Below, in pieces: positions 1-12,806 of a DNA stretch of 12,806 nucleotides (positions are counted from its first letter, which is position 1; every line of letters begins with the position of its first letter). The DNA comes from Candidatus Hermodarchaeota archaeon (lineage in GTDB: Archaea; Asgardarchaeota; Lokiarchaeia; Sigyniarchaeales; SOKP01): positions 1 to 12,806 of the forward strand of contig JBHLLG010000079.1 of NCBI GenBank assembly GCA_048885925.1, read 5' to 3'. The position numbers were made by a program, and so were the translations under genes. The notes under the pieces are model-generated. The model was not told the DNA's origin. It did not search any database and saw only the letters and a program-made list of their open reading frames with translations.

Positions 1-20
1 GTAATAAATGATTCCTTTTA

Positions 21-2111
21 TTGACAGATATGAGCTATTTTTTTGAAGTTTTAGCTAAGAAGATTGGTTATTCTAGAATAGGCCGAATTCTCTTTTCTAA
101 AGAAAGAAAATTATACATTAAAACACCTAATATTATCATTCCTATAAAAAGTACATTAATGAAACAATTGAATTTTATTCAAGAATTTGAAAATCATGAT
201 TTGTTTGAAATTACTAAGGAATTTTTTTTGAAAATTGGATTTATAAGGGAGAAATTCAGGAATAATGGATTCATTTTTACATATCCTGGTACAATTCAGG
301 AATTTCAACAAATATTAGAAAAAAATGCAAAGATATTTTCTCAAGATAATATAATCTCAATTATTCCTTTCAATATTCCTACTACTAGTATTTCCAAGGA
401 TTTTTCAGTCAAAGAAATAAAAAATTATCTTATAAATACCGAAAAAATATTAAAGATATATCCAAATATAAATTTTGGCTTATCAATCAGACTTTTTGAT
501 TATACTGAATTGTTTGAACTTTTTATTTCAACAATAAAACAATTCCAAAATATAAAAATTGTGAGCTTTATTGATCTTTTTGATAATCTTAGAAATTTTA
601 GGAGCATTTTAAAAGTAATTTTTAAACTTAAAAACGAATTGGATAACAATTTAATTGTTTTGGCTTCTGGTAGAATCATTCCAAAATATTATCCGCTACT
701 TATCTATTTAGGAATAGATCTTATCGACTGTTCTTATTCTATGTTTTTATCTGCAGAAAACTTTTATGATACAATAGAATACCTTTTACCAATATATAAA
801 GTTAAGTATTTACCTTGTTCCTGTTTAGCTTGTAAAGGTAATTTAATTAATATACTAGATAATAAATATTCATCTGAAAAGATTGAATTATTAAGCTTAC
901 ACAATTTAATTACAGCTTCTAATTACATGAAAAAAATTAATCAATATTTAAATTATGAAGATTTTAGAGTATTTGTTGAGAAATCTGCTTTTGATGAAGC
1001 AAATTTAATTTCAATGTTAAAGGTATTAGATAAAGAGTATTATGATTATCTTAAATATGAAACGCCAATAATACAAAATAATAAAACAATAAGATGTCTT
1101 GGACCTTTATCATATAATAGACCAGATTTTCAATACTTTAGAGAAAACACTATTAGAAGATTTGAACCTGAACCATGGACAACCTTAATAATTTTACTTC
1201 CATGTTCCGCTAAAAAACCATATTCAAAATCTAAATCGCATAAAACTTTTTATAATATTATAAGAAAATTCCCAGAATTTCCAAATTTTCAAGAATTTAT
1301 TTTAACTTCACCATTAGGAGTAATACCAAGACAATTGGAAAATATATATCCAGTTAATTCTTATGATATCTCTGTAACCGGTGATTGGGATAATGAGGAA
1401 ATATCTATCACAGCAGATATGCTTATTAAAATACTGGAAAAATATGATATAAAGATTCCAATTATTTGCCATTTAACAGGAGGATATCTTGAAATTATAA
1501 AGAAAGCTTCAAAAAATTTACAGCATAATTTTATTTTCTCAGAAATTCCTGATAAGACGACTTCTTTTGCATCACTTAAATCTTTAGAGAATTTAATCAT
1601 TGAATATAAAAACAAATTTCTATTGAAAAATAGTATAGTTAAAAATGAATATTTTTCAAGATCTTGGACTAGGAAATTTATTAAAATTTTAGATTATCAA
1701 TTTGGTATCGGAACAGGTAATAAAATTTTAACTAATGGATTAAAACCTATTCGTGTAAGATTTAATGATCAAATTGATTTAAAAGATCTAAAAACTAACG
1801 AAAAATTAGGGATTTTTAAATTTTCTACTGGACAAATCGAATTAACCCTTAATGGACTAAGAAGATTAAATAAAACTTCAATTTCTATTAGTTCTAATTA
1901 TATTGCCTTTGATGGAGAAGAAATTCGCGGAAATACCTTATTTCGAACAGGTGTGATTGATTACAGCTTAGATCTTATCCCAGATAATCAGGTAGTTATT
2001 GTTGATAAAAAAAAGAGAAATATAATAGGGAGTGGAAAGTTAATAGTTGGTTCAAGTTTTCTAAAAAATTCTAAAAGCGGGAGAATAGCAAATATATATG
2101 AATGGAAATAA
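21..2111 (+). CDS. arcS: Archaeosine synthase subunit alpha (ArcS; TGT-like barrel + DUF5591-type domain + PUA)
   Basis: 696-aa ORF. It has TGT-like motifs (SRIGRI..KTPNI, LGIDLIDC, Zn site CSCLAC...HN), the ArcS signature LLPCSAKKPYSKSKSH and LTSPLGVIPRQLE..YP...YDI.VTGDW, and a C-terminal PUA-like region (GNTLFRTGV...D.QVVIV...IIGSG). It lacks the DSGG motif of active TGTs and sits next to raSEA. The start may be TTG 21 or ATG 30. Confidence 0.9.
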   Translation: MTDMSYFFEVLAKKIGYSRIGRILFSKERKLYIKTPNIIIPIKSTLMKQLNFIQEFENHDLFEITKEFFLKIGFIREKFRNNGFIFTYPGTIQEFQQILEKNAKIFSQDNIISIIPFNIPTTSISKDFSVKEIKNYLINTEKILKIYPNINFGLSIRLFDYTELFELFISTIKQFQNIKIVSFIDLFDNLRNFRSILKVIFKLKNELDNNLIVLASGRIIPKYYPLLIYLGIDLIDCSYSMFLSAENFYDTIEYLLPIYKVKYLPCSCLACKGNLINILDNKYSSEKIELLSLHNLITASNYMKKINQYLNYEDFRVFVEKSAFDEANLISMLKVLDKEYYDYLKYETPIIQNNKTIRCLGPLSYNRPDFQYFRENTIRRFEPEPWTTLIILLPCSAKKPYSKSKSHKTFYNIIRKFPEFPNFQEFILTSPLGVIPRQLENIYPVNSYDISVTGDWDNEEISITADMLIKILEKYDIKIPIICHLTGGYLEIIKKASKNLQHNFIFSEIPDKTTSFASLKSLENLIIEYKNKFLLKNSIVKNEYFSRSWTRKFIKILDYQFGIGTGNKILTNGLKPIRVRFNDQIDLKDLKTNEKLGIFKFSTGQIELTLNGLRRLNKTSISISSNYIAFDGEEIRGNTLFRTGVIDYSLDLIPDNQVVIVDKKKRNIIGSGKLIVGSSFLKNSKSGRIANIYEWK

Positions 2112-3198
2112 TTATCATATGACAAAAGAAAATACTCTTGTTGAAAAAATTAATTTAATTAAACAAAATGCTCGAAATCACAGATCTCCTTATGGAGAAG
2201 AACAACTAAATCATCCAATAAGTTTTTGGGTAAAAAAGGATAGACTTTTAGATGAAATAGGAAAAGAGTTAACAATTATTTTACGAACTAGAGGATGCAG
2301 TTGGGCATTAAGTCAACATGGAGGATGTTCCATGTGTGGATATTATCTTGATGCAAATATGCAGAGTGTTTCAGTTTCACAGATTATTAGTCAATTTGAT
2401 TATGCTCTTAACAATAAAATTGAAGAAATTAAACGAGATTCCAATAACTTTATTTTAAAAATATTCAATTCAGGAAGTTTTTTGGATGAAAATGAAATTC
2501 CAGAAAAAGCTAGAGTCGATATTTATGAAAAAATCTCAAAACTAAATAAATTTAAGGAGGTTGTTATAGAATCGAGAGTCGAATATATAACAACACAAAA
2601 AATAGAAGAAATGAGAGACATTCTTAATAATAAGTATCTTGAAATAGCTATTGGACTTGAAACTGTAAATGATTATATTAGATATAACTACATAAATAAA
2701 GGAATTTCATTTAAGGATTTTAAAGATGCTTTAAACATATGCAAAACTTGTAATATTGGTGTAAAAGTGTATTTAATGTTTAAACCGCTCTTTCTTAATG
2801 AACAAGCGGCGATTGATGATTGCTCCTATTCTATAAAAGTCTTGAAGGGTTTGGGAGTGAATTCAATATCTATTAATCCGATGAATATTCAAAAAGGAAC
2901 TGTAGTAGAATATCTATGGTATCAAAATAGGTATAGACCACCATGGTGGTATTCACTTTTCAAATGCATAAAAAAATCTGTTAATCAGAATGATTTAAAA
3001 AATCTACGTTTATTATCAGATCCTTCAGGAGGAGGAAAAAATAGAGGAATTCATAATTGCCTTAAGAAGGAATGCGAAAATTCTTCGAAAATTACACTTA
3101 AAAATTTTAATCTTTCTCAAAATTTAAATGAACTAGACAAACAAAAAGATTTTTGTGAATGCAAAAAAAAATATCAATTACAGAAAAATTATTATTGA
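2098..3198 (+). CDS. raSEA: Archaeosine biosynthesis radical SAM enzyme RaSEA (TIGR01210-like)
   Basis: Motifs TIILRTRGCSW.....GGCSMCGY (atypical CX9CX2C), KIFNSGSFLD, ESRVEY, EIAIGLET, INKG, VKVYLMFKP, YRPPWWYS and RGIHNC. Overlaps the arcS end by 14 nt; alternative ATG at 2119. Confidence 0.92.
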   Translation: MNGNNYHMTKENTLVEKINLIKQNARNHRSPYGEEQLNHPISFWVKKDRLLDEIGKELTIILRTRGCSWALSQHGGCSMCGYYLDANMQSVSVSQIISQFDYALNNKIEEIKRDSNNFILKIFNSGSFLDENEIPEKARVDIYEKISKLNKFKEVVIESRVEYITTQKIEEMRDILNNKYLEIAIGLETVNDYIRYNYINKGISFKDFKDALNICKTCNIGVKVYLMFKPLFLNEQAAIDDCSYSIKVLKGLGVNSISINPMNIQKGTVVEYLWYQNRYRPPWWYSLFKCIKKSVNQNDLKNLRLLSDPSGGGKNRGIHNCLKKECENSSKITLKNFNLSQNLNELDKQKDFCECKKKYQLQKNYY

Positions 3199-3346
3199 AA
3201 TTTCTTATAGGAGAGTATTTTATTACGAATAATATAACAAATTTTTTAATTGCCATTTGTGTAGAAATCTATAGGAAAAACCATTATATTTAAATATTAA
3301 CAACCATCTTTTATTTTAATTTTCATCCATTCTTTAAGGGGATCTC

Positions 3347-3601
3347 TTGAGAAAGAACTGGGTTAAATTGAATCTATTCTATATTGGACAATCAGCTAAA
3401 AAACATCAAATATTTAGAGCAAAACAATGGAATAGTAAATTAGAAAAAATATTCAAACAACCGGTTTTTAATGAAAAATACCAGAAGGTTGGTTACATTA
3501 AAGATATTATTGGCCCCGTAGATTCTCCTTTCCTTTCAGTTAAAATAATACCTAATGCACAATTTAATCCCGATGATAAACTTTTTACTAAGATTACTTA
3601 G
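3347..3601 (+). CDS. gar1: Gar1/Naf1-family H/ACA RNP protein
   Basis: 84 aa with VFNEKYQKVGYIKDIIGPVDSPFLSVK, the Gar1 'V.D.....IG.V.DI.GPV..PY..VK' motif. It lies directly upstream of tfb, a common archaeal gene pair. TTG start at 3347 (alternative TTG 3368). Confidence 0.85.
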   Translation: MRKNWVKLNLFYIGQSAKKHQIFRAKQWNSKLEKIFKQPVFNEKYQKVGYIKDIIGPVDSPFLSVKIIPNAQFNPDDKLFTKIT

Positions 3602-3637
3602 CTTTTTAACGTTATTTAAAAAAATATTTTTAAAAAA

Positions 3638-3643
3638 AAGGTG
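3638..3643 (+). promoter_or_regulatory. Shine-Dalgarno-like AAGGTG upstream of the predicted ATT start of tfb
   Basis: AAGGTG lies 6 nt before ATT 3650. The same core precedes canonical starts in the window (AGGTG 5504-5508 before TTG 5517; AAGGTG 11760-11755 before ATG 11745). Confidence 0.7.
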
Positions 3644-3649
3644 TGTTAA

Positions 3650-4621
3650 ATTTCAAATTGGAAAGAATCAAATTCCTTAAATGAAGAGTATTCAAGTGCA
3701 GAAACTAATTTATGTACTGAATGCGGAAAAGATATATTTTTTGATGAAAATCGGGGATTAGTAGTTTGCGAGGAATGTGGTTTAGTCCATTCTGAAAAAC
3801 ATATTGACAATGGACCAGAATGGAGAGCATTTGATGCTGATCAAAAGAAGAAAAGAACAAGAACAGGAGCGCCTATGACTTATATGATACACGATAAAGG
3901 ACTTAGTACTATGATAGATTGGAAAAATCGAGATATTTTTGGCAAAGAAATACCAGCAAAACTAAGAGGTCAGATTTATCGATTACGGAAGTGGCAAAGT
4001 CGCATTAGAGTTTCTGATGCAACAGAAAGAAACCTTACATTTGCATTAAGTGAACTTGATCGTATGGCCTCAAATCTAGACCTACAAAAAAACCTAAGAG
4101 AGTGTTCAGCAAAAATATATAGAGATGCTGTTGAAGCTCATTTGATTCGTGGAAGGAGTATAGAAGGAGTAGCAGCTGCAAGTTTATATGCAGCTTGTAG
4201 AATGTATAAAGTTCCTCGAACATTAAATGAAATTGCTGAAGTAGCTCGTGTAGACAAAAAAGAAATTGGTCGATCTTACAGATTTATTTCAAATGAATTA
4301 TCTTTAGAATTAAATCCTTCTCGTCCAATAGACTTTCTTCCAAGGTTTATATCAGAATTAGGATTAACAACAAGATGTCAAAAAGCAGCCAAAAAAATAA
4401 TTAGAATGGCAGAAGAACGTGGACTAACATCTGGAAGGGGCCCTACGGGAGTATGTGCTGCGTCAATTTATGCAGCATGTATTTTATCCAATGAACGGAG
4501 AACGCAAAGAAAAATAGCACGTATTAGTTGTGTTACAGAAGTTACAGTGCGAAATCGATTTAGTGAGCTTGTAGAAAACCTTAATCTCGGATTATCATTA
4601 AAAAAAAACCATAAAACCTAA
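3650..4621 (+). CDS. tfb: Transcription initiation factor IIB (TFB), full length ~323 aa, predicted ATT start
   Basis: The ORF track starts at ATG 3875, but the same frame is open from 3650. The extension encodes the Zn ribbon (CTECG...VCEECG), B-reader [10 protein letters not shown] and RTRTGAP, followed by the cyclin repeats ([43 protein letters not shown]). There is an in-frame TAA at 3647-3649 and no in-frame ATG/GTG/TTG from 3650 to 3874. Identity is very secure; the exact start is inferred. Confidence 0.93.
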
Positions 4622-4735
4622 ATTTAAATTTATTTTACCACTTTATTAAAAGCTCATTTTATTCTATAATAGAATTTAAAAATAAAAGAATTATCAAGAA
4701 AAATTTTATCTCAAAAAAATTACAATTTTAAGCCA

Positions 4736-5329
4736 ATGCCAAAAGATCTCAATAGAAAAATTAAACCAAGACTACCCCCTGGACAACATATAACTGAAAG
4801 ATTTCCTGTTCTTCAAAAAGGAAGCGTTGTTCATATCGATAGAGAGACATATAAACTAAGAATTGAAGGTGAAATTGAACATCCTAAAACTTATTCTTTT
4901 GAAGATTTAAAAGGTCTTCAGGATCTTGAGATAATCGAAGATATTCATTGTGTGACATCTTGGAGTAAGTTTGATACAAGATGGAGTGGTATATCTTTTA
5001 GGAAGCTTTTTGATATAGTAAAACCTAAAAATACTGCTAAATTTATTGAATTCTATTGTGCAGATTATGGTTTTACTACGACTGTTCCAATGGAGAGATT
5101 AATGGTTGATAATGCTATACTTGCATTACATTACGATGGAAAGCCGATTGATGATAAACATGGAGGACCTGTAAGAGCTGTTATTCCTGATCTTTATTTT
5201 TATAAAAGTGCAAAATGGGTGATTAAAATAACTTTTCTTACTCAAGATAAACTTGGATATTGGGAAGTCCATGGATATTCAAATAAAGCTGATCCTTGGA
5301 AAGAACAAAGATATAGTACTGATGATTAA
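4736..5329 (+). CDS. Sulfite oxidase-like molybdopterin-dependent oxidoreductase (YuiH/MsrP-like catalytic domain)
   Basis: RLPPGQ, DIHCVTSWSKFD (Mo-ligating Cys), HGGPVRAVIPDLYFYKSAKWV and GYWE..GY....DPWKEQRY. Confidence 0.9.
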   Translation: MPKDLNRKIKPRLPPGQHITERFPVLQKGSVVHIDRETYKLRIEGEIEHPKTYSFEDLKGLQDLEIIEDIHCVTSWSKFDTRWSGISFRKLFDIVKPKNTAKFIEFYCADYGFTTTVPMERLMVDNAILALHYDGKPIDDKHGGPVRAVIPDLYFYKSAKWVIKITFLTQDKLGYWEVHGYSNKADPWKEQRYSTDD

Positions 5330-5516
5330 AAATTAGTATAAAATCCCAATTATATTTAAGATTTAAACATTAGTATCTGGATATTATTGGTGAAATGTCT
5401 GATTCTATCGAATATGATGCTCCATACTATAGTAAATTGATATTATCTTCATATTATAACCATTAATGTTATAATAACTTCAATTAGATCATAATAACAG
5501 ATCAGGTGCAATAAAA

Positions 5517-5852
5517 TTGGATAATTTAATAAATGAAAGTGAGGTTAATTATTTTTTATATAGGATAGAGAAAAATTTCCCTAATTTTGTTGCCGGAATT
5601 ATTACAGATAAACATGGCTTCCCTGTCGCCTCTAAAATCTCAAAGAATTTATGGATTCTAGAGAATACTTTAGCATTGTCTGCAATTACTAAAAATAGAG
5701 AGTTTATACAAGATTCTAAATTAATTCAAATTAAAAAGGATTTAGATAAATCGAAAAATTATAAACTATTAATCTTGCTGGAAAAATCGAAAGATTATAG
5801 GAGTCGATTAAAACCATTGAAACATTTAATTAAATCTCAGGAACTTTTTTAG
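5517..5852 (+). CDS. Small divergent Roadblock/LC7- or profilin-fold-like protein
   Basis: 111 aa, TTG start 8 nt after AGGTG. An N-terminal helix is followed by AGIITDKHGFPVAS, matching the Roadblock 'hhh.D..G.hh.S' hairpin. The C-terminal half is divergent. Confidence 0.55.
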   Translation: MDNLINESEVNYFLYRIEKNFPNFVAGIITDKHGFPVASKISKNLWILENTLALSAITKNREFIQDSKLIQIKKDLDKSKNYKLLILLEKSKDYRSRLKPLKHLIKSQELF

Positions 5853-6049
5853 GAAAACGATTGACTGAACGATATTTTATAACGAAGCGTAGAAAAAGAT
5901 ATCCTTTACTTAAATTTTTATATTTATAATGTCTTCATTAATTCAAGTAAGGTCTAAGATGAAGATATTAAGTTAACTTTAAATAAATATTTTTTAATCT
6001 TATAAAAATAATAATTAAAAGACTTAATAATAAATAGGTTGACAAATCT

Positions 6050-6520
6050 TTGAGTTATTCTGAGGATGAACTTCAATTAAAAAAGATTTTAACCGCAGTT
6101 ATAAATAGCACAGCAGGACTCAAGCATGCTCTTATAACTGATGATACAGGAATAACAATATTAAGTCAATCTAAATTTAAATTTTCTGATTCGAATAAAG
6201 TTTCTGTAGAAAAGATCGGCGCAATCGGGAGTGCTGTTTTTGTAGCAGGCGAGGAACAAGGACATATTTTGGGTTATGGCGGCATTGATTTACAAATTAC
6301 TGAATATATGGATGGAATGATTTTTTCAATGAAAGTTGATAAAGGAGTCCTTTGTATTGCAACGGATAAAAATGTTCAAATAGGATTTATTAGAGCTACT
6401 ATGAAGAGATGGAGTGGACAGATTAGTGCAATATTGAATAGATATTTACAAGCAGATCAAGCTGAAATGAGTAAAGAACTAAAGGAATTATTTCGATCTG
6501 ATACTATAGGTATGTTATAA
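6050..6520 (+). CDS. Roadblock/LC7 (MglB/LAMTOR-like) domain protein
   Basis: 156 aa. LKKIL....GLKHALITDDTGITILS, EKIGAIGSAVFVAGEEQG..LG.G, QITEY.DG.I and VLCIATDKNVQIGFIR are typical of Roadblock/LC7. It has a ~25-aa C-terminal helical tail. SD-like AGGTTGA lies before TTG. Confidence 0.85.
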   Translation: MSYSEDELQLKKILTAVINSTAGLKHALITDDTGITILSQSKFKFSDSNKVSVEKIGAIGSAVFVAGEEQGHILGYGGIDLQITEYMDGMIFSMKVDKGVLCIATDKNVQIGFIRATMKRWSGQISAILNRYLQADQAEMSKELKELFRSDTIGML

Positions 6521-6535
6521 ATAAAATCAGCATAT

Positions 6536-6840
6536 TATTGTTGCCTAAAACACTAACTCTTCTTTCTCATTTAACGGAATTTCCGTAAAATCGAAATAGT
6601 TCTCTCAGTGTTAGGCGGTAATTTCTATGCCTTTTTGGGACATAATCATGTTTCCTGCCTGGGTACTGACTCGAACTTCATTGCTATGGGATTTACCCTT
6701 AAATGCTAAGTTAAGAGCCCATTTCTTCAGGAAAAGTACTGATTAATTAACTCTAGTGTATGCGTATCCTTGCGCTACATAATCATGGGTTAATCATATG
6801 TGCCCTCGATAACGCAAAATTTCTATCATTGTTGTCCCAA
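6536..6840 (-). ncRNA. Candidate structured RNA: multi-K-turn box C/D-like domain followed by an H/ACA-type hairpin
   Basis: About 38% GC by hand count (113/300 over 6541-6840), clearly above the other spacers, with no ORF in the track. Terminal stem UUGGGACA/UGUCCCAA (6840-6833/6642-6635). C-like AUGAUAG, D-like AUGA, D' CUGA (6730-6727) and C' AUGAAG (6681-6676). The 3' hairpin GCCUAA/UUAGGC carries tandem GA/GA and is followed by A-ACA-AUA. A TATA box lies upstream at the expected distance. Confidence 0.7.
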
Positions 6841-6861
6841 TAAATAATAGTAATAATTTCA

Positions 6862-6878
6862 TTTTAAAATTTTTATTT
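6862..6878 (-). promoter_or_regulatory. Putative BRE/TATA promoter for the candidate ncRNA
   Basis: Minus strand reads purine-rich AAATAAAAA then TTTTAAAA (6869-6862), which is -29 to -22 relative to 6840. The AT-rich background makes chance matches common. Confidence 0.5.
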
Positions 6879-7373
6879 TTATGAGAAAGGAAAAGGATCT
6901 TTTTTATTTATTCCATTAATTTTATCTTTTATTCGTATTATTAAGCTTGTTAAACAGTTAAAAAGTATTTTTTTTATTTGTTCATACGTAAGATCAATTT
7001 CAATATCAGAATCATCACGAAAATCATCAAATTTATAAAAGGCTTTATATACATTTTTCGTTTTAAGAATTTTATAAGAGGCATCGACAATGAAGGCATA
7101 AACAAGCTCACTTTCATATTCTCTTTTCATAATCAGAGATAACATAACGAATTCTTTATTTCCTCGAGCCCACTCGGAGGGAATTTCAAAATTAAAATTA
7201 ATTATTTTCTTCTTTTTTGTTATAAGAACTATTTCAAAAAAGGTTTCATCAATCTCGAGGTCAAAGAACTTAATAAGAGATTGGATAATTTTTTCTTCCA
7301 ATTTAACCTCAGGGTAAGATATTAAGACATTTGGACCCTTTATCTGATGAAAAAATGTAATAACTAAATGCAT
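6879..7373 (-). CDS. Stand-alone longin/uDENN-like domain protein (Asgard eukaryotic-signature type)
   Basis: N-terminal LVITFFHQIKGPNVLISYPE matches the NPRL2/uDENN 'hh..FH...GP.h....P' motif. FEIPSEWARGNKEFVMLSLI resembles the 'ARG..R.h.hh' motif of folliculin/DENN-type longin domains. Confidence 0.65.
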   Translation of the reverse strand: MHLVITFFHQIKGPNVLISYPEVKLEEKIIQSLIKFFDLEIDETFFEIVLITKKKKIINFNFEIPSEWARGNKEFVMLSLIMKREYESELVYAFIVDASYKILKTKNVYKAFYKFDDFRDDSDIEIDLTYEQIKKILFNCLTSLIIRIKDKINGINKKDPFPFS

Positions 7374-7458
7374 AAGATAGTATAATTAAATTTTATTAAA
7401 GTATAAAATTAGTAAATTTAAAATTAATTTTATAGAAAAAGAGCTTTTTAACATATTA

Positions 7459-8211
7459 TTAATCATTTTTTAATAATGTTAGAATATCATCATAAGAACC
7501 AAGTAGTTCCTTAACATTTTGATTTCTTAATCCTTCTTTAGGTTCGCCGTTAAAAATAATTTTACCATCATCCAAAAATAACATAGTTTCAGCCCAGTGT
7601 TCAACGAAAAACAAATTATGGGATGTGAAAAATATCGTAATATTCATTTCTTTCCTTAATTTCTCCAAAATTTTAAGATGATTATAAATCGATTTAAAAT
7701 CAAGATTGGCAAAAGGTTCATCTAAAATAAGTAATTTGGGCTTCATTACTAACAATCCTGCTAATGCAGCTCTTTTTTTTTGCCCCCAAGAAAGATTAAA
7801 AGGGGAATAATGTTTAAATTCAAATAAATCTACCGCTTCTAAGGCCCATTTAACTCTATATTTAACTTCTTCTTCATCTAATTTCAAATTCCTTGCTCCA
7901 AAACCGACATCCTCTTCGATTGTTGGAGCAAATAATTGATCATCAGGATTTTGGAATAAAAAGCCAATTGATTTTCTAAGTTCCCATAATGATTGTTTAT
8001 CTCTTGTAAGAGTTTTATTGAAAATCTTAATTAACCCTGAGCTCGGTTTTAATAAACCTACTATCAATCTCAATAAGGTTGTTTTACCTGATCCATTATT
8101 TCCAGTTAATCCACAAATGACTTTTTCTTCTAATTTAAAAGATAAATCATGTATATTAAAACCTGAATTATAACTAAAGTTTAGATTTTCTACTTCTACT
8201 GCAAAATTAAT
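7459..8211 (-). CDS. cbiO: ECF transporter ATPase (CbiO/NikO), ~250 aa, predicted ATT start
   Basis: FLFQNPDDQLFAPTIEEDVGFG, LSWGQKKRAALAG, LILDEPFANLD and SHN. The frame continues upstream of the track start (8073) through Walker A GLTGNNGSGKTT to (I)NFAVEVENLNFSY. No ATG/GTG/TTG occurs upstream of 8073 before the in-frame stop at 8316-8314. ATT at 8211-8209 follows AAGGTG (8224-8219) by 7 nt. Confidence 0.88.
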   Translation of the reverse strand: MNFAVEVENLNFSYNSGFNIHDLSFKLEEKVICGLTGNNGSGKTTLLRLIVGLLKPSSGLIKIFNKTLTRDKQSLWELRKSIGFLFQNPDDQLFAPTIEEDVGFGARNLKLDEEEVKYRVKWALEAVDLFEFKHYSPFNLSWGQKKRAALAGLLVMKPKLLILDEPFANLDFKSIYNHLKILEKLRKEMNITIFFTSHNLFFVEHWAETMLFLDDGKIIFNGEPKEGLRNQNVKELLGSYDDILTLLKND

Positions 8212-8999
8212 GAAAATACACCTTGATAAATTAATTCTAAGTCTATAACAAAAATAAAAATGATCACCATTAAAGAGAACAAAATTATTAATCCCAAATC
8301 TGTCAATTTTAATTTATTTTGAACAAATGTTATTTTACCAGAAAAACCTCTCATTTTTAAGCTTTCATATAGTCTTTCACTTCTTTCCATATTCATTATT
8401 ATGCTTTTACCCATAATATAAGCATGAGTTTTTAATTTTTGCCAATATGAAGTGATTTTTTTACCTCTCATCTCCTGAGCATCTAATATCTTTTTATTAG
8501 ACATTGCCAGAATTGGAATATAATGTATCATTATTATTAATGATCCTACTAAAACTGAGGGTAATCTTAATTTAGTTAGAGCGTCTATAAATTCGGAATA
8601 AGTTAAAGTGGAAAAAAATGACATAAAAATGAAAAGAGCTGCAATGACTCTAAAAAAAATAAGGGAAGCTAGATATAGTCCTTCTTTATAAATTATAATT
8701 CTAAACCCAAGATTTAATATGTAAAACTTAGTATCCCCGACGTAAAATGGAATGAATACAGTTATAAGAAAAACTAATGGTATAATTACTTTTAATCTTG
8801 AGAGTATTTTTATAATACTTAATCGAAGTATTAAATTAATTATAAGAGTAACTAACAAAATTGTGAATAAAAGATAAAAATCTTCTAATAATAGAACAGG
8901 TATAACAAAAATAAATGGTAAAATTAGGCGAATAAGGGGATGAACTCTCATTAAATAACGTTTTTCGCTTTCAAGCCGAAAAGGTAGTATTATTTTCAA
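8196..8999 (-). CDS. cbiQ: ECF transporter transmembrane T component (CbiQ/NikQ)
   Basis: Hydrophobic 267 aa with HPLIRL, LRLPSVL...YIPIL, AQEMRG and ERSERLYESLKMRGFSG (the two X-R-X coupling motifs). TTG start after AAGTGA. Confidence 0.9.
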   Translation of the reverse strand: MKIILPFRLESEKRYLMRVHPLIRLILPFIFVIPVLLLEDFYLLFTILLVTLIINLILRLSIIKILSRLKVIIPLVFLITVFIPFYVGDTKFYILNLGFRIIIYKEGLYLASLIFFRVIAALFIFMSFFSTLTYSEFIDALTKLRLPSVLVGSLIIMIHYIPILAMSNKKILDAQEMRGKKITSYWQKLKTHAYIMGKSIIMNMERSERLYESLKMRGFSGKITFVQNKLKLTDLGLIILFSLMVIIFIFVIDLELIYQGVFSLILQ

Positions 9000-9042
9000 A
9001 ATTTAAATCACTTAAAGAGATTAATAGCAACTTTTTTATTAA

Positions 9043-9107
9043 TTCATACTAATTTTTAAAAAAGTAATACTTAAAACCTTTCATACTTTGTTGTATTATA
9101 GTAATAT
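9043..9107. promoter_or_regulatory. Two tandem 28-bp NikR-like operators in the divergent cbiQO / cbiM promoter region
   Basis: TTCATAC-N14-GTAATAC (9043-9070) and TTCATAC-N14-GTAATAT (9080-9107), 37 bp apart. This is the same 7-14-7 geometry as the E. coli NikR operator GTATGAC-N14-GTCATAC. Confidence 0.6.
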
Positions 9108-9151
9108 TCTAACAATTTATTAAAAATAAAATTAACCCCTATTTTTTAAAA

Positions 9152-10147
9152 ATGCATATACCAGATGGATTATTGGATCCAATTACTATTATTGTTTCAT
9201 GGGTCATAATTGTAATTATTATGATTCTAGGATATTTTAAGATGGAAAAAGTTTTTGAGAAAGAAGATTCTGATAAATTAATTCCATATATTGGTGTTTT
9301 GGCAGCAGTTATATTTGCTTTTCAATTTGTAAATTATCCTGTTCCAGGGGGAACCTCTGGTCATTTCATTGGAGGCACTCTTATTGCAGTTATGTTAGGT
9401 CCTTGGGCATCAGTTATTATCCTTTTTCTAGTTTTAGTTGTACAAAGTTTATTTGGAGATGGAGGTATATTAGCTTTAGGAGCAAATACATTTAATATGG
9501 GAATAATAGGAGGGATTATTGGATTTTACATTGTTGTAATTATAGCAAAAATCTTAAACAAAACATCTATCAAAAAAGAGATGAAAATCACAATAGCTAC
9601 AGCAATTGGATCTTATATCTCTATTGTTTTAGCCTCTTTTATCTGTGGTATTGAAATAAGTATTGCTGGAGCAGTTCCATTGGGGATAGCAATTCCAGCT
9701 ATGGTTTATTGGCACGTTTTGATAGGTATTGGAGAAGCAATTATCTCTGGTTTAATTGTATTTTATATTTATAGAGTAAAACCAGATTTTATTACAACAG
9801 AGTCAATTATGGCTGAAAAAATATTAACTATTAATATTTCTAAGTATAAAAAACCGATACTTTCAATATTGGCAATTACAGGAATCTTGCTCGTAATGAT
9901 AGCAGTAGGATTTACAATTGGAATTTTATCGGAGGCTCCTGATGGATTAGAACGTGTATTGATTGATCAAAATGGTGAATCTTGGCTTGAAAGCTTAGTA
10001 TCTCCATGGGATCCAATATTTAGTTGGATAACAAGTGATTACGGAGCTGCAATTTTAGGTATCGTTATATCTTCTCTATTGATATGTTCAGCATTCTACT
10101 TAATAGTCCGTTATAAAAAAAAGAATTCAATAAATATTATAAAATAA
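9152..10147 (+). CDS. cbiM: ECF Ni/Co substrate-binding component CbiM/NikM fused to a PDGLE (NikN-like) domain
   Basis: Metal-binding N-terminus MHIPDG, plus GTSGHFIGG, QSLFGDGGILALGAN.FNMG and HVLIGIGEAIIS. The C-terminal two-TM segment contains SEAPDGLE. Confidence 0.9.
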   Translation: MHIPDGLLDPITIIVSWVIIVIIMILGYFKMEKVFEKEDSDKLIPYIGVLAAVIFAFQFVNYPVPGGTSGHFIGGTLIAVMLGPWASVIILFLVLVVQSLFGDGGILALGANTFNMGIIGGIIGFYIVVIIAKILNKTSIKKEMKITIATAIGSYISIVLASFICGIEISIAGAVPLGIAIPAMVYWHVLIGIGEAIISGLIVFYIYRVKPDFITTESIMAEKILTINISKYKKPILSILAITGILLVMIAVGFTIGILSEAPDGLERVLIDQNGESWLESLVSPWDPIFSWITSDYGAAILGIVISSLLICSAFYLIVRYKKKNSINIIK

Positions 10148-10161
10148 AAAAAGTTGGGTAA

Positions 10162-10177
10162 TTTTTTTAAAAAAAAA
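10162..10177. terminator. Probable bidirectional oligo(T)/oligo(A) terminator between convergent genes
   Basis: T7 (10162-10168) is immediately followed by A9 (10169-10177), between the cbiM stop (10147) and the permease stop (10189). Archaeal intrinsic termination uses U tracts. Confidence 0.45.
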
Positions 10178-10188
10178 TAAGTAAAGAC

Positions 10189-10929
10189 TTATTTATTTCC
10201 AAATTTTTTGAATATCTGAATACCAATTATTACAATTACTATACTCACTATTGAAACAAATGCAATGTCAATCATAATATTTTTACTGAGTAATGAATCT
10301 CCATTAAATATTGATGTTAAAGCGTCTGTAACATAATAACTTGGAAGAAAGATTGCTAACATTCGCGTATTACTAGTTACTGGTATAAAAGTTCCTAGGA
10401 ACATTTGAGGTAATATAAAGAGAAAAGATAAGCCAGTTGCTACACCGGCACTTTTAGCGATCGTAGCCGTAATTAATCCAAGTCCAACAGAACTAAGAGA
10501 AAAAATTACCATAAGCAAAATTGCTAATAAAATACCTAGAATATCTGCCTGTGGTCTAAAGTCAAAGAATTGAGCTAAAATGAAAACAATGAGAACTTGC
10601 AGCATAGCTATTATCATATTTGAAAGAATTTGACTTAACATGAAATCAGACGCTTTCATAGGTGTAATACTTAATCTTCTTAATAATCCCTGTTCTCTTT
10701 CATCAGAAAAAGATTGTGCTACAATCATTATTATGAAAATACACGCGTAAGCAAATAATCCGGGCGCCATTGCACTAAATGACATTCCTAGTTCTGGATC
10801 ACTAAAGGTAAAACCAAAAATTATCGTGAGAACTGCTGGAAATAGAAACATTAAAAAAAGATAAGCCGGTTCTCTTATAATTTTTTTTAATTCCATCTTT
10901 AATAATGCAAAGAGTCGTTGGGTATTCAT
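10189..10929 (-). CDS. ABC-2 type exporter permease
   Basis: About six TM segments; ELKKIIREP, APGL, EREQGLLRRLSITP, PQMFLGTFIP and FLPSYYVTDAL. Confidence 0.9.
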   Translation of the reverse strand: MNTQRLFALLKMELKKIIREPAYLFLMFLFPAVLTIIFGFTFSDPELGMSFSAMAPGLFAYACIFIIMIVAQSFSDEREQGLLRRLSITPMKASDFMLSQILSNMIIAMLQVLIVFILAQFFDFRPQADILGILLAILLMVIFSLSSVGLGLITATIAKSAGVATGLSFLFILPQMFLGTFIPVTSNTRMLAIFLPSYYVTDALTSIFNGDSLLSKNIMIDIAFVSIVSIVIVIIGIQIFKKFGNK

Positions 10930-11745
10930 TTACATTCCCTCCATAATTCTTCTTCCTGTAATATTCATAAAGACACCTTCTAAATTATCTGATTCATATT
11001 TCTTCATTAATTCTTGTGGTGTACCAATATCTAGCAATTCACCATAGTCAATAATTGCGACTCTATCACATAGAGCTTCAGCTTCTTCAATATAGTGAGT
11101 TGTAAGTAACACTGTTTTTCGCTCATTTTTAAAATTACCAATAAAGTTCCATGTCTTTCTTCGTGCTCGTGGGTCCATCCCAACTGTTGGTTCGTCTAAG
11201 AAAATGATTTTGGGATTATTGATAATAGACATAATCAAATTTAATTGACTTAACATCCCTCCACTATAACCTTTCGTTTTATGTTTACTTGCATTTGAGA
11301 AATCTAACTCATTAATTAGTTCATCTGCTCTGCTTTTTATATTATCTTTCGGCATCGAATATAGGTTTCCAAAGAGTTCTATATTCTCTCTTCCCGTTAA
11401 AAATTTAAATACAGCATGCTCCTGGGGGCAAACGCCAATTAATTCTTTAACAGCTGCGCTATCATTTTGTATATCATATCCATAAATAGATGCTGTTCCA
11501 TCAGTTGGTTTAATTAATCCTATTAATATATTGATGGTTGTTGTTTTTCCTGCTCCATTTGGTCCTAATAGTCCAAAAATTTCTCCGGATTTAACACTGA
11601 AAGAAATATCATTTATAGCTTTAACAATTTCAAATTTTGTTTTAAAGTATTTCTTCAAATTACTTACTTCTATTGCATTTTCGTTATCTGGATTAAAAAT
11701 ATCTTCAGGACTCATAGATTCATATTTATTTGATTTAATTACCAT
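10930..11745 (-). CDS. ABC-2 type exporter ATP-binding protein (DrrA-like)
   Basis: Walker A GLLGPNGAGKTT, Q-loop VCPQE, signature YSGGM, Walker B IIFLDEPTVGMDP and H-loop TTHYIEEAEALCDR. AAGGTGA SD. It abuts the permease gene. Confidence 0.93.
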   Translation of the reverse strand: MVIKSNKYESMSPEDIFNPDNENAIEVSNLKKYFKTKFEIVKAINDISFSVKSGEIFGLLGPNGAGKTTTINILIGLIKPTDGTASIYGYDIQNDSAAVKELIGVCPQEHAVFKFLTGRENIELFGNLYSMPKDNIKSRADELINELDFSNASKHKTKGYSGGMLSQLNLIMSIINNPKIIFLDEPTVGMDPRARRKTWNFIGNFKNERKTVLLTTHYIEEAEALCDRVAIIDYGELLDIGTPQELMKKYESDNLEGVFMNITGRRIMEGM

Positions 11746-12093
11746 TTTTTAAGTCACCTTTATTTTAATTTATTATTGTAATTCATTAGATTTTATTGAA
11801 TTATTTATAGTCCAATATTTGATATAGAAACATTCAAGATGTTTTATAATATTAATGTAAATTGGGTAGTTCGAAGAAAATGAAAATCAATAGTCAATAA
11901 TGGGCAATCTTTCATCCACTTGGGTGATAAAAAGTAATAATATTATCTTAAAAAAAATCAAAAAACATAAAGAAATGCAGTTTAAAGAAATTTTATAACT
12001 ATTTATAAATATTACTTATAAATGAATTTTTTAAAATGGAGTCCATTCTATCTACTATATGGGTTAAAAGAGTGAATTTATAAAAATCGAAAC

Positions 12094-12804
12094 CTATTTA
12101 TTTTTTTGTTTGATCTCCTTGATTTTTGCTTCTAAAAAGGAGTCACGCCAAGTAGGGAAATTTTTTCCTTCAACTAATACAGTAACATCAACAGAATCAA
12201 ATTCTTTAGATCTAAGGAAAGTTTCAATTCCTTGAAGTTCTTTCATAACACTTATCCAAACACAAATTATTATCAGATCAGGGAGATTACTAAATGACCA
12301 AGAAAACAATATTTTTTGACCATATTGATTTTTTAATTCATCCATTACTTTTTTTTCATCTAAATTTATTCCCGGTTTTACTTTTAAAATAATAAATGAT
12401 AAAAATTCAGATGTTTTATCAGGATACCAATCAATTGTGAATAAAATGAGTTTTTTCTCTATCAATCTATCTAAATATCGCCTGATAGTTTTAGTGGAGC
12501 TTCCTATTTCATCTGCTATGTCTGCTATAGTTTTTCTTGAATTTTCCTTTAATGCATTTATAATTAAATAATCTAAATCTGAAAAGGAAATACTTATTAT
12601 ATCTTCATCTCCCATGGAAAATATTGATTTCTCGATACCTACTGTTAGTTCATTTATTTCACCTTTATCTCTTATAAACGAAATTAAATCATCTAATTGA
12701 TTTATATTTCGAATGTAAGAGTGTGTATAAAATAAATTGCTACTTGCTTGGGTGACGTTATATACACATTCATGAGAGCCAAGTATTTCAATTGTAGCTT
12801 TTGG
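12094..12804 (-). CDS. Tandem (duplicated) Lrp/AsnC-family transcriptional regulator, 5' partial
   Basis: wHTH LDYLIINALKENSRKTIADIADEIGSSTKTIRRYLDRL followed by a RAM-like domain. The frame stays open from 12615 to the window end and encodes a second RAM-like segment (HECVYNVTQASSNLFYTHSYIRNINQLDDLISFI), so the true start lies outside the window. Confidence 0.8.
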   Translation of the reverse strand, partial: PKATIEILGSHECVYNVTQASSNLFYTHSYIRNINQLDDLISFIRDKGEINELTVGIEKSIFSMGDEDIISISFSDLDYLIINALKENSRKTIADIADEIGSSTKTIRRYLDRLIEKKLILFTIDWYPDKTSEFLSFIILKVKPGINLDEKKVMDELKNQYGQKILFSWSFSNLPDLIIICVWISVMKELQGIETFLRSKEFDSVDVTVLVEGKNFPTWRDSFLEAKIKEIKQKNK

Positions 12805-12806
12805 GT

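Follow-up and report, generated by a model that had tools for sequence, protein, structure and literature searches.

A structured RNA of Asgard archaea with three H/ACA units, probably a diverged relative of the HgcG/Pab40 pseudouridylation guide

The archaeal H/ACA small RNA (sRNA) Pab40/Pf7/Afu4 of Thermococcales and Archaeoglobus has been described as a three-motif RNA (PMC2377435). [quoted passage not shown] Pab40 is the same RNA as HgcG, Rfam family RF00064 (PMC4652768). A further multi-hairpin archaeal H/ACA guide acting on 23S rRNA is Haloferax volcanii sR-h45 (PMC7075261), in which, by its published description, on which this comparison rests, two stem-loops guide three 23S pseudouridines, as against the three units reported here. 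In the present work we describe an RNA encoded on the minus strand of a 12,806-nucleotide (nt) stretch of DNA from Candidatus Hermodarchaeota archaeon (contig JBHLLG010000079.1, positions 1 to 12,806; the whole stretch analysed is called the window below), which is very probably the Asgard version of the three-motif H/ACA guide HgcG/Pab40/Pf7/Afu4, independently transcribed, strongly diverged and structurally elaborated. A literature search gave no account of an Asgard H/ACA RNA or of this RNA among the matches listed; other papers or supplements may describe some.

The window is very A+T-rich archaeal DNA, with 18-40% G+C in segments of 200 nt. The segments of the element have 35-39% G+C, which is above most of the window and is matched by a few coding stretches, and the RNA itself has about 39% G+C. 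The gene lies in a 358-nt gap (6521-6878) between two open reading frames (ORFs), one on the plus strand (6050-6520) and the other on the minus strand (6879-7373). A first-pass annotation, made from the sequence alone, had placed in this gap an unannotated structured minus-strand RNA of ~305 nt. Rfam does not call it, and the locus is indeed a real structured RNA of ~320 nt on the minus strand, spanning about 6841 to 6523; the 3' end, formerly put near 6536, moves accordingly to about 6523. Both strands fold better than shuffled sequences, with z-scores of -3.89 for the minus and -4.75 for the plus strand, so that the strand cannot be chosen from folding energy. It is fixed as minus by frequent G.U pairs, which read on the plus strand would become C.A; they occur in 21 and 18 of the 24 sequences of the genus alignment and in 31 of the 43 of the family alignment. 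The first-pass annotation had favoured the same strand from its G-U pairs and the position of a TATA box, which lies in a conserved block upstream of the first helix (Table 1).

The RNA is expressed. Metatranscriptome contigs from four runs in three studies, 151-270 nt long, map wholly inside 6545-6831, three of them with a single-base difference from the window. The genes on both flanks are uncovered by RNA contigs, which is no evidence that the flanks are silent. Small sequence shares in 16 further RNA runs were left out of account. It is extremely improbable that the RNA is a 3' untranslated region or a cis-regulatory element of the upstream gene of 164 amino acids (aa) at 6879-7373, despite the shared strand and the position directly downstream of that ORF, given the conserved TATA box between the two, the absence of the 164-aa gene from several genera, and the RNA contigs that lie wholly within the RNA.

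Comparison of homologues, put forward by the first-pass annotation as a check, revealed helices that covary strongly in both the genus and the family alignment. Scored with the curated structure, the genus alignment of the 5' domain has 93.9% of the cells paired, compared to 27.6-40.4% in slid controls, and 6 of the 36 pairs change on both sides. The family alignment of this domain, which was fitted to the model, a fit that favours the structure, has 94.2% of cells paired against at most 37.6% when slid, with 23 of 36 pairs changing on both sides, a value that 0 of 500 shuffles attained. The 3' domain, aligned with MAFFT, is paired in 90.5% of cells against at most 48.5% when slid, with 10 of 25 pairs changing on both sides. 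A scan of covarying columns over the whole alignment was dominated by clade effects, and only pairs in a helical context were kept.

The 5' domain is closed by helix P1, the 8-bp (base pair) stem UUGGGACA/UGUCCCAA, which was already proposed in the first-pass annotation. A junction joins P1, a C/D-type kink-turn (K-turn) and motif 2's outer helix. The 3' domain is closed by the helix GGCAUA/UAUGCU, both strands of which are missing together in 8 of 39 genomes. The segment AUAGAA (6628-6623), initially read as an H-box hinge, belongs to this helix and the adjoining loop, and is lost along with its partner in these 8 genomes. An alternative pairing of the 5' AUGAUGG with CAUGAUUAU, given by one alifold run, was rejected, being broken without compensation in 7 of 24 sequences, against one compensated and one wobble change in the helix UAAUCA/UGAUUA. 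A longer pairing of the 5' and 3' parts beyond P1 is not conserved in the genus alignment as inspected by eye. A sarcin-ricin or loop E reading of AGUA was rejected from the alignment by eye, since the strand facing it is unsuitable. GAGAG and AUAGAAA were also considered by eye as RNase MRP-like elements; the topology is unfit, and the AUAGAAA stretch is deleted in 8 of 39 sequences.

In archaeal H/ACA RNAs the ANA box lies 14-16 nt 3' of the pocket. Three separate units of the present RNA, termed motifs 1 to 3, show a covariation-supported architecture of lower stem, pocket and upper stem, each followed by an ANA box, and carry an apical K-turn or K-loop, which in motif 3 is present in part only. 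Across the phylum, the pocket strands are the most conserved parts.

Motif 1 is supported by covariation over 6816-6761, in place of the internal hairpin 6795-6745 of the first-pass annotation, which is not conserved. Its ANA box is 14 nt from the pocket, counted from the base of the upper stem, in 41 of 44 sequences and 15 nt in the other 3; its K-loop becomes a K-turn in some species through an inserted C-stem, in the correct register. Motif 2 is large and irregular, and its helices covary as well. The ANA box reads ACA in 32, AUA in 10 and AAA in 2 of the 44 sequences, and is located 15-17 nt from the pocket in 38 of them. A formerly suggested stem AUGGG-CUCUUAA/UUAAGGG-CCCAU is not conserved, covariation supporting GGCUC/GAGUC, and the supposed box D' CUGA (6730-6727) is a strand of the covarying helix CCUG/CAGG. 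The supposed box C' AUGAAG (6681-6676) does form a strand of a real K-turn, without the role of a C' box. This K-turn, whose bulge is AAU, reaches the full canonical form (GA/GA) in one clade and has A-U at the second G.A position elsewhere.

Motif 3 corresponds to the 3' H/ACA hairpin recognized in the first-pass annotation, with the lower stem GCCUAA/UUAGGC, the internal UUUC-GA...GA-GAAA and the tip ACGG/CCGU, and the pairing of the 3' domain given above bears it out. The ACA noted at its end is sound too: an ANA is found at this place or one base off in all 39 sequences, 16 nt from the pocket in 35 of them. Altogether we count four putative L7Ae-type G.A motifs, namely the C/D-type K-turn, the motif 1 K-loop, the motif 2 K-turn and the motif 3 tandem G.A, in agreement with the up to four L7Ae sites predicted earlier.

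BLASTN with the 358-nt gap as query found one full-length copy of the RNA in each of 23 genomes of the same genus (23/23), at 66-85% identity; outside the genus it gave only a few matches, to A+T-rich pieces of 20-40 nt. The RNA was modelled in parts, and a covariance model of the 5' domain, termed R1, recovered the RNA once and at full length in 118 of the 130 same-family genomes, covering 13 genera, and not at all in the 19 genomes of the other three families of the order, searched with the stricter filters of the large search. A second covariance model, R2, built from 44 diverse family members, matched 24 of 25 genomes in the family and 43 of 125 genomes elsewhere in the phylum. Thirty-six of these 43 matches have an expectation value (E) of at most 1e-4, 3 lie between 1e-4 and 1e-3 and 4 are weaker, and nearly all cover the whole model.

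Through R2, the window family is linked to distant Asgard loci, 20 of which were followed up (27-66 bits, E 3e-16 to 6e-6). Seven of these 20 loci match RF00064 over model positions 1-276 with 25.8-51.9 bits and E of 1e-11 to 1e-3, and the RF00064 matches overlap the R2 matches on the same strand and in the same register; the sole other Rfam family matched among the 20 is tRNA. Across the phylum, 14 of 151 genomes contain sub-threshold RF00064 matches, four of which coincide with R2 matches. The RNA, whose family the first-pass annotation did not recognise, is thus linked to RF00064 via intermediate Asgard sequences, and because it links to this known family, the proposed counterpart relation to the large small nucleolar RNAs (snoRNAs) and small Cajal body-specific RNAs (scaRNAs) of eukaryotes is not needed. 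The three Asgard homologues nearest to HgcG are each followed by a tRNA gene, ~60 nt downstream on the same strand (L118 710-781, L116 716-791 and L122 263-191).

The alignment through these intermediates places the three units on the three elements of HgcG. Motif 1 aligns to hairpin 1, with which it shares the pocket strands CGAGG and GCAA/GCGA and the K-loop. Motif 2 aligns to element 2, a large middle element with GGGCUCUU, AAUGAG and GAGUCA-ACCC in common, and motif 3 aligns to hairpin 3, GUGUUA element included. Further shared features are the K motifs AUGA and an ACA box after each unit. Judged by the published descriptions, the RNA resembles HgcG/Pab40 in having three H/ACA units in the same order on one RNA of about 230-320 nt (PMC2377435, PMC4652768). 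The resemblance to HgcG includes the CGAGG-type 5' guide and K-loop of motif 1, the large and irregular motif 2 with extra structure on its 5' side, and the GUGUUA-type 3' strand of motif 3. They differ in build. Unlike HgcG/Pab40, the Asgard RNA has ~39% G+C and lower stems of only 4-5 bp, is extended on its 5' side by a part whose C/D-type K-turn encloses motif 1, and has P1 and further helices that enclose the units together with their ANA boxes. Moreover, motif 3 has the 5' guide GAGAGAAC, which is unsuited to stem-loop 69, where Pab40 motif 3 acts.

Predicted targets were searched for under a strict geometry, in which pairing starts next to the unpaired U-N with at least 3 bp on each side. 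No rRNA genes were found in the source assembly or in four of the five other genomes tried, and the 23S rRNA of a same-family genome was used. In this rRNA motif 1 has a single site, a U two bases 5' of the universal CCUCGAUG element in the peptidyl-transferase centre, with 8+5 bp for the guide of the window and 8+3 bp for the guide of the 23S genome itself; shuffled guides equalled these in 23 and 114 of 2000 cases, respectively. We infer that motif 1 would guide modification of the U two bases upstream of CCUCGAUG, in the region modified by the Pyrococcus homologue. The target of motif 3 is tentatively a U in a conserved element of domain II. Of motif 2, only the 3' strand finds a complement in the tested 23S rRNA, the element CUGGGU, which occurs there at three sites. 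In the region L130 975-997, one copy of CUGGGU precedes the predicted motif 3 U, 6 nt upstream of it.

Several points weigh against the assignment to the HgcG/Pab40 guides. The window has no Rfam match at the gathering score, and none to RF00064 even when 501 nt were searched at E <= 10. None of the 151 phylum genomes has an RF00064 match at the gathering score, and the 25 genomes of the source family have no match to it. Membership in RF00064 would be transitive and below the Rfam threshold, by a chain of two steps through models with rough E-values; the gathering score of RF00064 is 77 bits, and the best intermediate has 51.9 bits. Lower stems of 5 bp in motif 1 and of 4-5 bp in motif 2 are short, and in motifs 2 and 3 additional helices close the internal loops that contain the ANA boxes; both traits are atypical of H/ACA units. 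The pocket strands of motif 3 are partly self-complementary (AAC/GUU, invariant), and its apical G.A lacks the 3-nt bulge in the source genome. As to targets, the tested 23S rRNA belongs to another genus (L130, G064). The best site of motif 3 is weak, with 6+5 bp that 209 of 2000 shuffled guides match; stem-loop 69 was rejected as its target, with only 4 bp on the 3' side and a further 5 bp set off by a 3x3 loop; and for motif 2 the strict geometry gives no two-sided target in the tested 23S. In addition, the RNA contigs record presence in RNA libraries and are blind to ends, strand and level. At E <= 10 the window gives only chance-level matches to Ref70, TLS-PK6 and SOX2OT.

The missing Rfam match of the window, the short lower stems, the internalised ANA boxes, the self-complementary pocket of motif 3 and the lack of a two-sided target for motif 2 would also suit a structural or scaffold RNA peculiar to Asgard archaea, one that looks like an H/ACA RNA without guiding pseudouridylation. 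We consider this very unlikely, as three separate units obey the ANA-distance rule in nearly all sequences, the strands conserved most across the phylum are those of the pockets, motif 1 matches a single rRNA site, and the homology chain to RF00064 is significant at both steps. The guide related to HgcG/Pab40 is retained as the preferred identity.

Two boxes form the C/D-type K-turn, a 5' one of the AUGAUGG type and a CNGA box immediately 3' of the motif 1 ACA. It is not terminal, and encloses motif 1 inside P1. The geometry is canonical, with the C-stem AC/GU, a 3-nt bulge and tandem G.A, followed by the 3b.3n position and two Watson-Crick pairs. Each of the five flanking pairs varies on both sides (5/5), with 88.7% of cells paired compared to at most 53.8% when slid; three of the five have no unpaired cell in 43 sequences, and 3b.3n is non-Watson-Crick in 21 of the 43. 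The K-turn occurs in most Asgard homologues and is absent from the three closest to the Rfam HgcG. The C-like box of the first-pass annotation (6829-6823) is confirmed, its GA being invariant in 44 of 44 sequences. The D-like AUGA (6649-6646) once paired with it sits inside the Watson-Crick helix UAAUCA/UGAUUA, and the true partner of the C box is CUAGA (6756-6752). The composite nature proposed earlier stands as far as a C/D-type K-turn and H/ACA units coexist in one RNA, and falls for the ~200-nt 5' domain, which holds two more H/ACA units and no C/D domain.

An internal C'/D' pair with two spacers of ~12 nt, as in box C/D RNAs, is lacking: the K motifs are 23-26 nt apart and the spacers pair with each other. 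We therefore read the K-turn as a probable L7Ae-binding scaffold element. In H/ACA RNAs, a K-turn can also be simply a site for L7Ae. A dual-function composite ribonucleoprotein (RNP) has to be weighed here, in which the K-turn, perhaps with the motif 1 K-loop as C'/D', would recruit Nop5-fibrillarin, and the RNA would guide 2'-O-methylation as well, as an archaeal forerunner of scaRNAs. The canonical geometry of the C-like and D-like strands, the covariation of all flanking pairs and the presence of the K-turn in most Asgard homologues, those closest to HgcG excepted, speak for it, whereas the region upstream of the D-like box offers no free guide of ~12 nt, being occupied by the ACA box and lower stem of motif 1, the K motifs have the wrong spacing with spacers paired together, and a K-turn alone may be a plain L7Ae site. 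Such dual function is unlikely in our view, a judgement from layout, no search for methylation-guide complementarity having been made. Somewhat less unlikely, though still improbable, is that the ancestral three-motif guide gained in Asgard archaea a true C/D-type K-turn clamping unit 1 that would yield a hybrid C/D-H/ACA RNP if Nop5-fibrillarin or a dedicated L7Ae-family paralogue were recruited.

Eukaryotic composite scaRNAs such as U85 have complete functional C/D and H/ACA domains and an H-box hinge. The Asgard RNA is similar to U85 in combining C/D-type and H/ACA-type elements, and differs in that its C/D part is a K-turn only and the putative H box is a helix strand. [quoted passage not shown] In Pab21, by these descriptions, the H/ACA motif sits beside a complete C/D sRNA, whereas here the C-like and D-like strands flank one H/ACA hairpin and guide spacers are not evident.

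Matches to the TruB_N (Cbf5-type), Nop10, Gar1 and L7Ae families were all found in the source genome; the TruB_N match, made at the family level, is a candidate Cbf5. The gar1 gene of the window lies ~2.9 kb from the RNA gene and adjoins a TFB-like gene. In four of the six genomes checked gar1 is within 3-6 kb of the RNA gene; in the remaining two the gene sits on another contig or at a distance of 1.2 Mb. We propose that L7Ae would bind the G.A motifs and that Cbf5-Nop10-Gar1 would dock on each lower stem and its ANA box. Both pocket strands would then pair with 23S rRNA flanking the unpaired U-N, and Cbf5 would isomerise the U. The extra K-turn and helices may function as an assembly scaffold that makes up for the unusually short lower stems.

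Table 1. Positions of the RNA elements and of gar1 in the window.
Feature	Position	Strand	Details
TATA-like promoter box	6862-6869	-	Block conserved throughout the 24 same-genus sequences; first paired base ~26 nt downstream
P1, 5' strand UUGGGACA	6833-6840	-	Closes the 5' domain with 6635-6642; 85.3% of cells paired, 4/7 pairs change both sides
K-turn, bulged strand	6823-6832	-	C-stem AC, 3-nt bulge, GA, box C-like AUGAUAG; GA in 44/44
H/ACA motif 1	6761-6816	-	Lower stem 6816-6812/6765-6761; 5' guide 6811-6804; K-loop 6796-6782; 3' guide 6773-6766
Motif 1 ANA box (ACA)	6757-6759	-	ACA 36, AUA 4, AAA 4 of 44
K-turn, non-bulged strand	6749-6756	-	Box D-like CUAGA, then C-stem GUU; GA 40/44, AA 4
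H/ACA motif 2	6643-6745	-	Outer helix 6745-6740/6648-6643; lower stem CCUG/CAGG 6731-6728/6657-6654; pocket strands 6727-6720 and 6667-6658
Motif 2, upper part	within 6643-6745	-	Upper stem GGCUC/GAGUC; K-turn 6708-6705 with 6684-6678; ACA 6651-6649
P1, 3' strand UGUCCCAA	6635-6642	-	Same helix covariation
3'-domain closing helix GGCAUA/UAUGCU, 5' strand	6626-6631	-	Pairs with 6529-6534; 93.1% paired, 3/5 pairs change both sides
H/ACA motif 3	6543-6616	-	Lower stem 6616-6608 with 6553-6551 and 6548-6543; 5' guide 6607-6599; 3' guide 6557-6554
Motif 3, upper part	within 6543-6616	-	Irregular upper stem; tandem G.A 6592-6591/6568-6567; tip 6586-6574
Motif 3 ANA box (ACA)	6539-6541	-	ACA 32, AAA 3, AUA 1, plus 3 AAA shifted one base, of 39
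Closing helix 3' strand UAUGCU, then conserved U-run	6523-6534	-	U-run taken as terminator
gar1, 84-aa ORF	3347-3601	+	The genome's only Gar1 (PF04410) match, 3452-3592, 29.9 bits vs cut-off 29.3

A size of ~300 nt, multiple K-turns and the fact that RF00373 finds nothing in the source genome could point to a diverged RNase P RNA or signal recognition particle (SRP) RNA. The chance of either is negligible. The SRP RNA of the source genome sits on another contig, at 73 bits. RNase P RNA maps elsewhere in 19 of 23 same-genus genomes, scoring 119-136 bits, and the same genomes carry the present RNA, which has no P4-type pseudoknot topology. The Rfam check for these two RNAs suggested in the first-pass annotation thus left the window unmatched and found both at other loci. 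A search for a tRNA or transfer-messenger RNA (tmRNA) found none. The SRP RNA match (G000:C1:322149-322451, plus strand) scores below the Rfam gathering score of 96.5 bits, and standard annotation would miss it. The source assembly has no RNase P RNA match and no rRNA motifs, despite an estimated completeness of 95%; stable-RNA genes seem to be under-assembled in it. In one same-genus genome, two adjacent full-length RNase P RNA matches (G016:C66:15325-15647 and 15651-15981; 130.1 and 90.8 bits) lie on the same strand 4 nt apart, in what looks like a tandem gene duplication.

The ORF translations of the window, read by eye without a family search, include an archaeosine tRNA-guanine transglycosylase-like, a TFB-like and two Roadblock-like genes. 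The latter are tandem Roadblock/LC7-like genes at 5517-5852 and 6050-6520, both on the plus strand, and the 164-aa ORF on the other side of the RNA gene could not be assigned to a family from its translation. On the downstream side, 79 loci have the convergent Roadblock-like gene as neighbour, a count in which some loci figure twice, and it is conserved in this place across genera. The upstream neighbour varies, an ABC ATPase gene replacing the 164-aa gene in several genera.

Overall, the RNA would carry a well-studied rRNA pseudouridylation guide of euryarchaea into a large part of the Asgard phylum, in which no copy scores above threshold with the public model, and the models R1 and R2 would allow these genes to be annotated. 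The motif 1 pocket and its predicted peptidyl-transferase site appear to be conserved from Thermococcales to Asgard archaea. The Pab40 motif 1 site is described as pseudouridylated in eukaryotes too (PMC2377435), and if the predicted site is that of Pab40 motif 1, a very old guide-target pair becomes testable. The lineage-specific build, with its short stems, internalised ANA boxes, closing helices and K-turn, bears on how H/ACA RNPs assemble on multi-unit RNAs. A hybrid RNP, if true, would provide an archaeal precedent for scaRNA-type composites in the lineage closest to eukaryotes.

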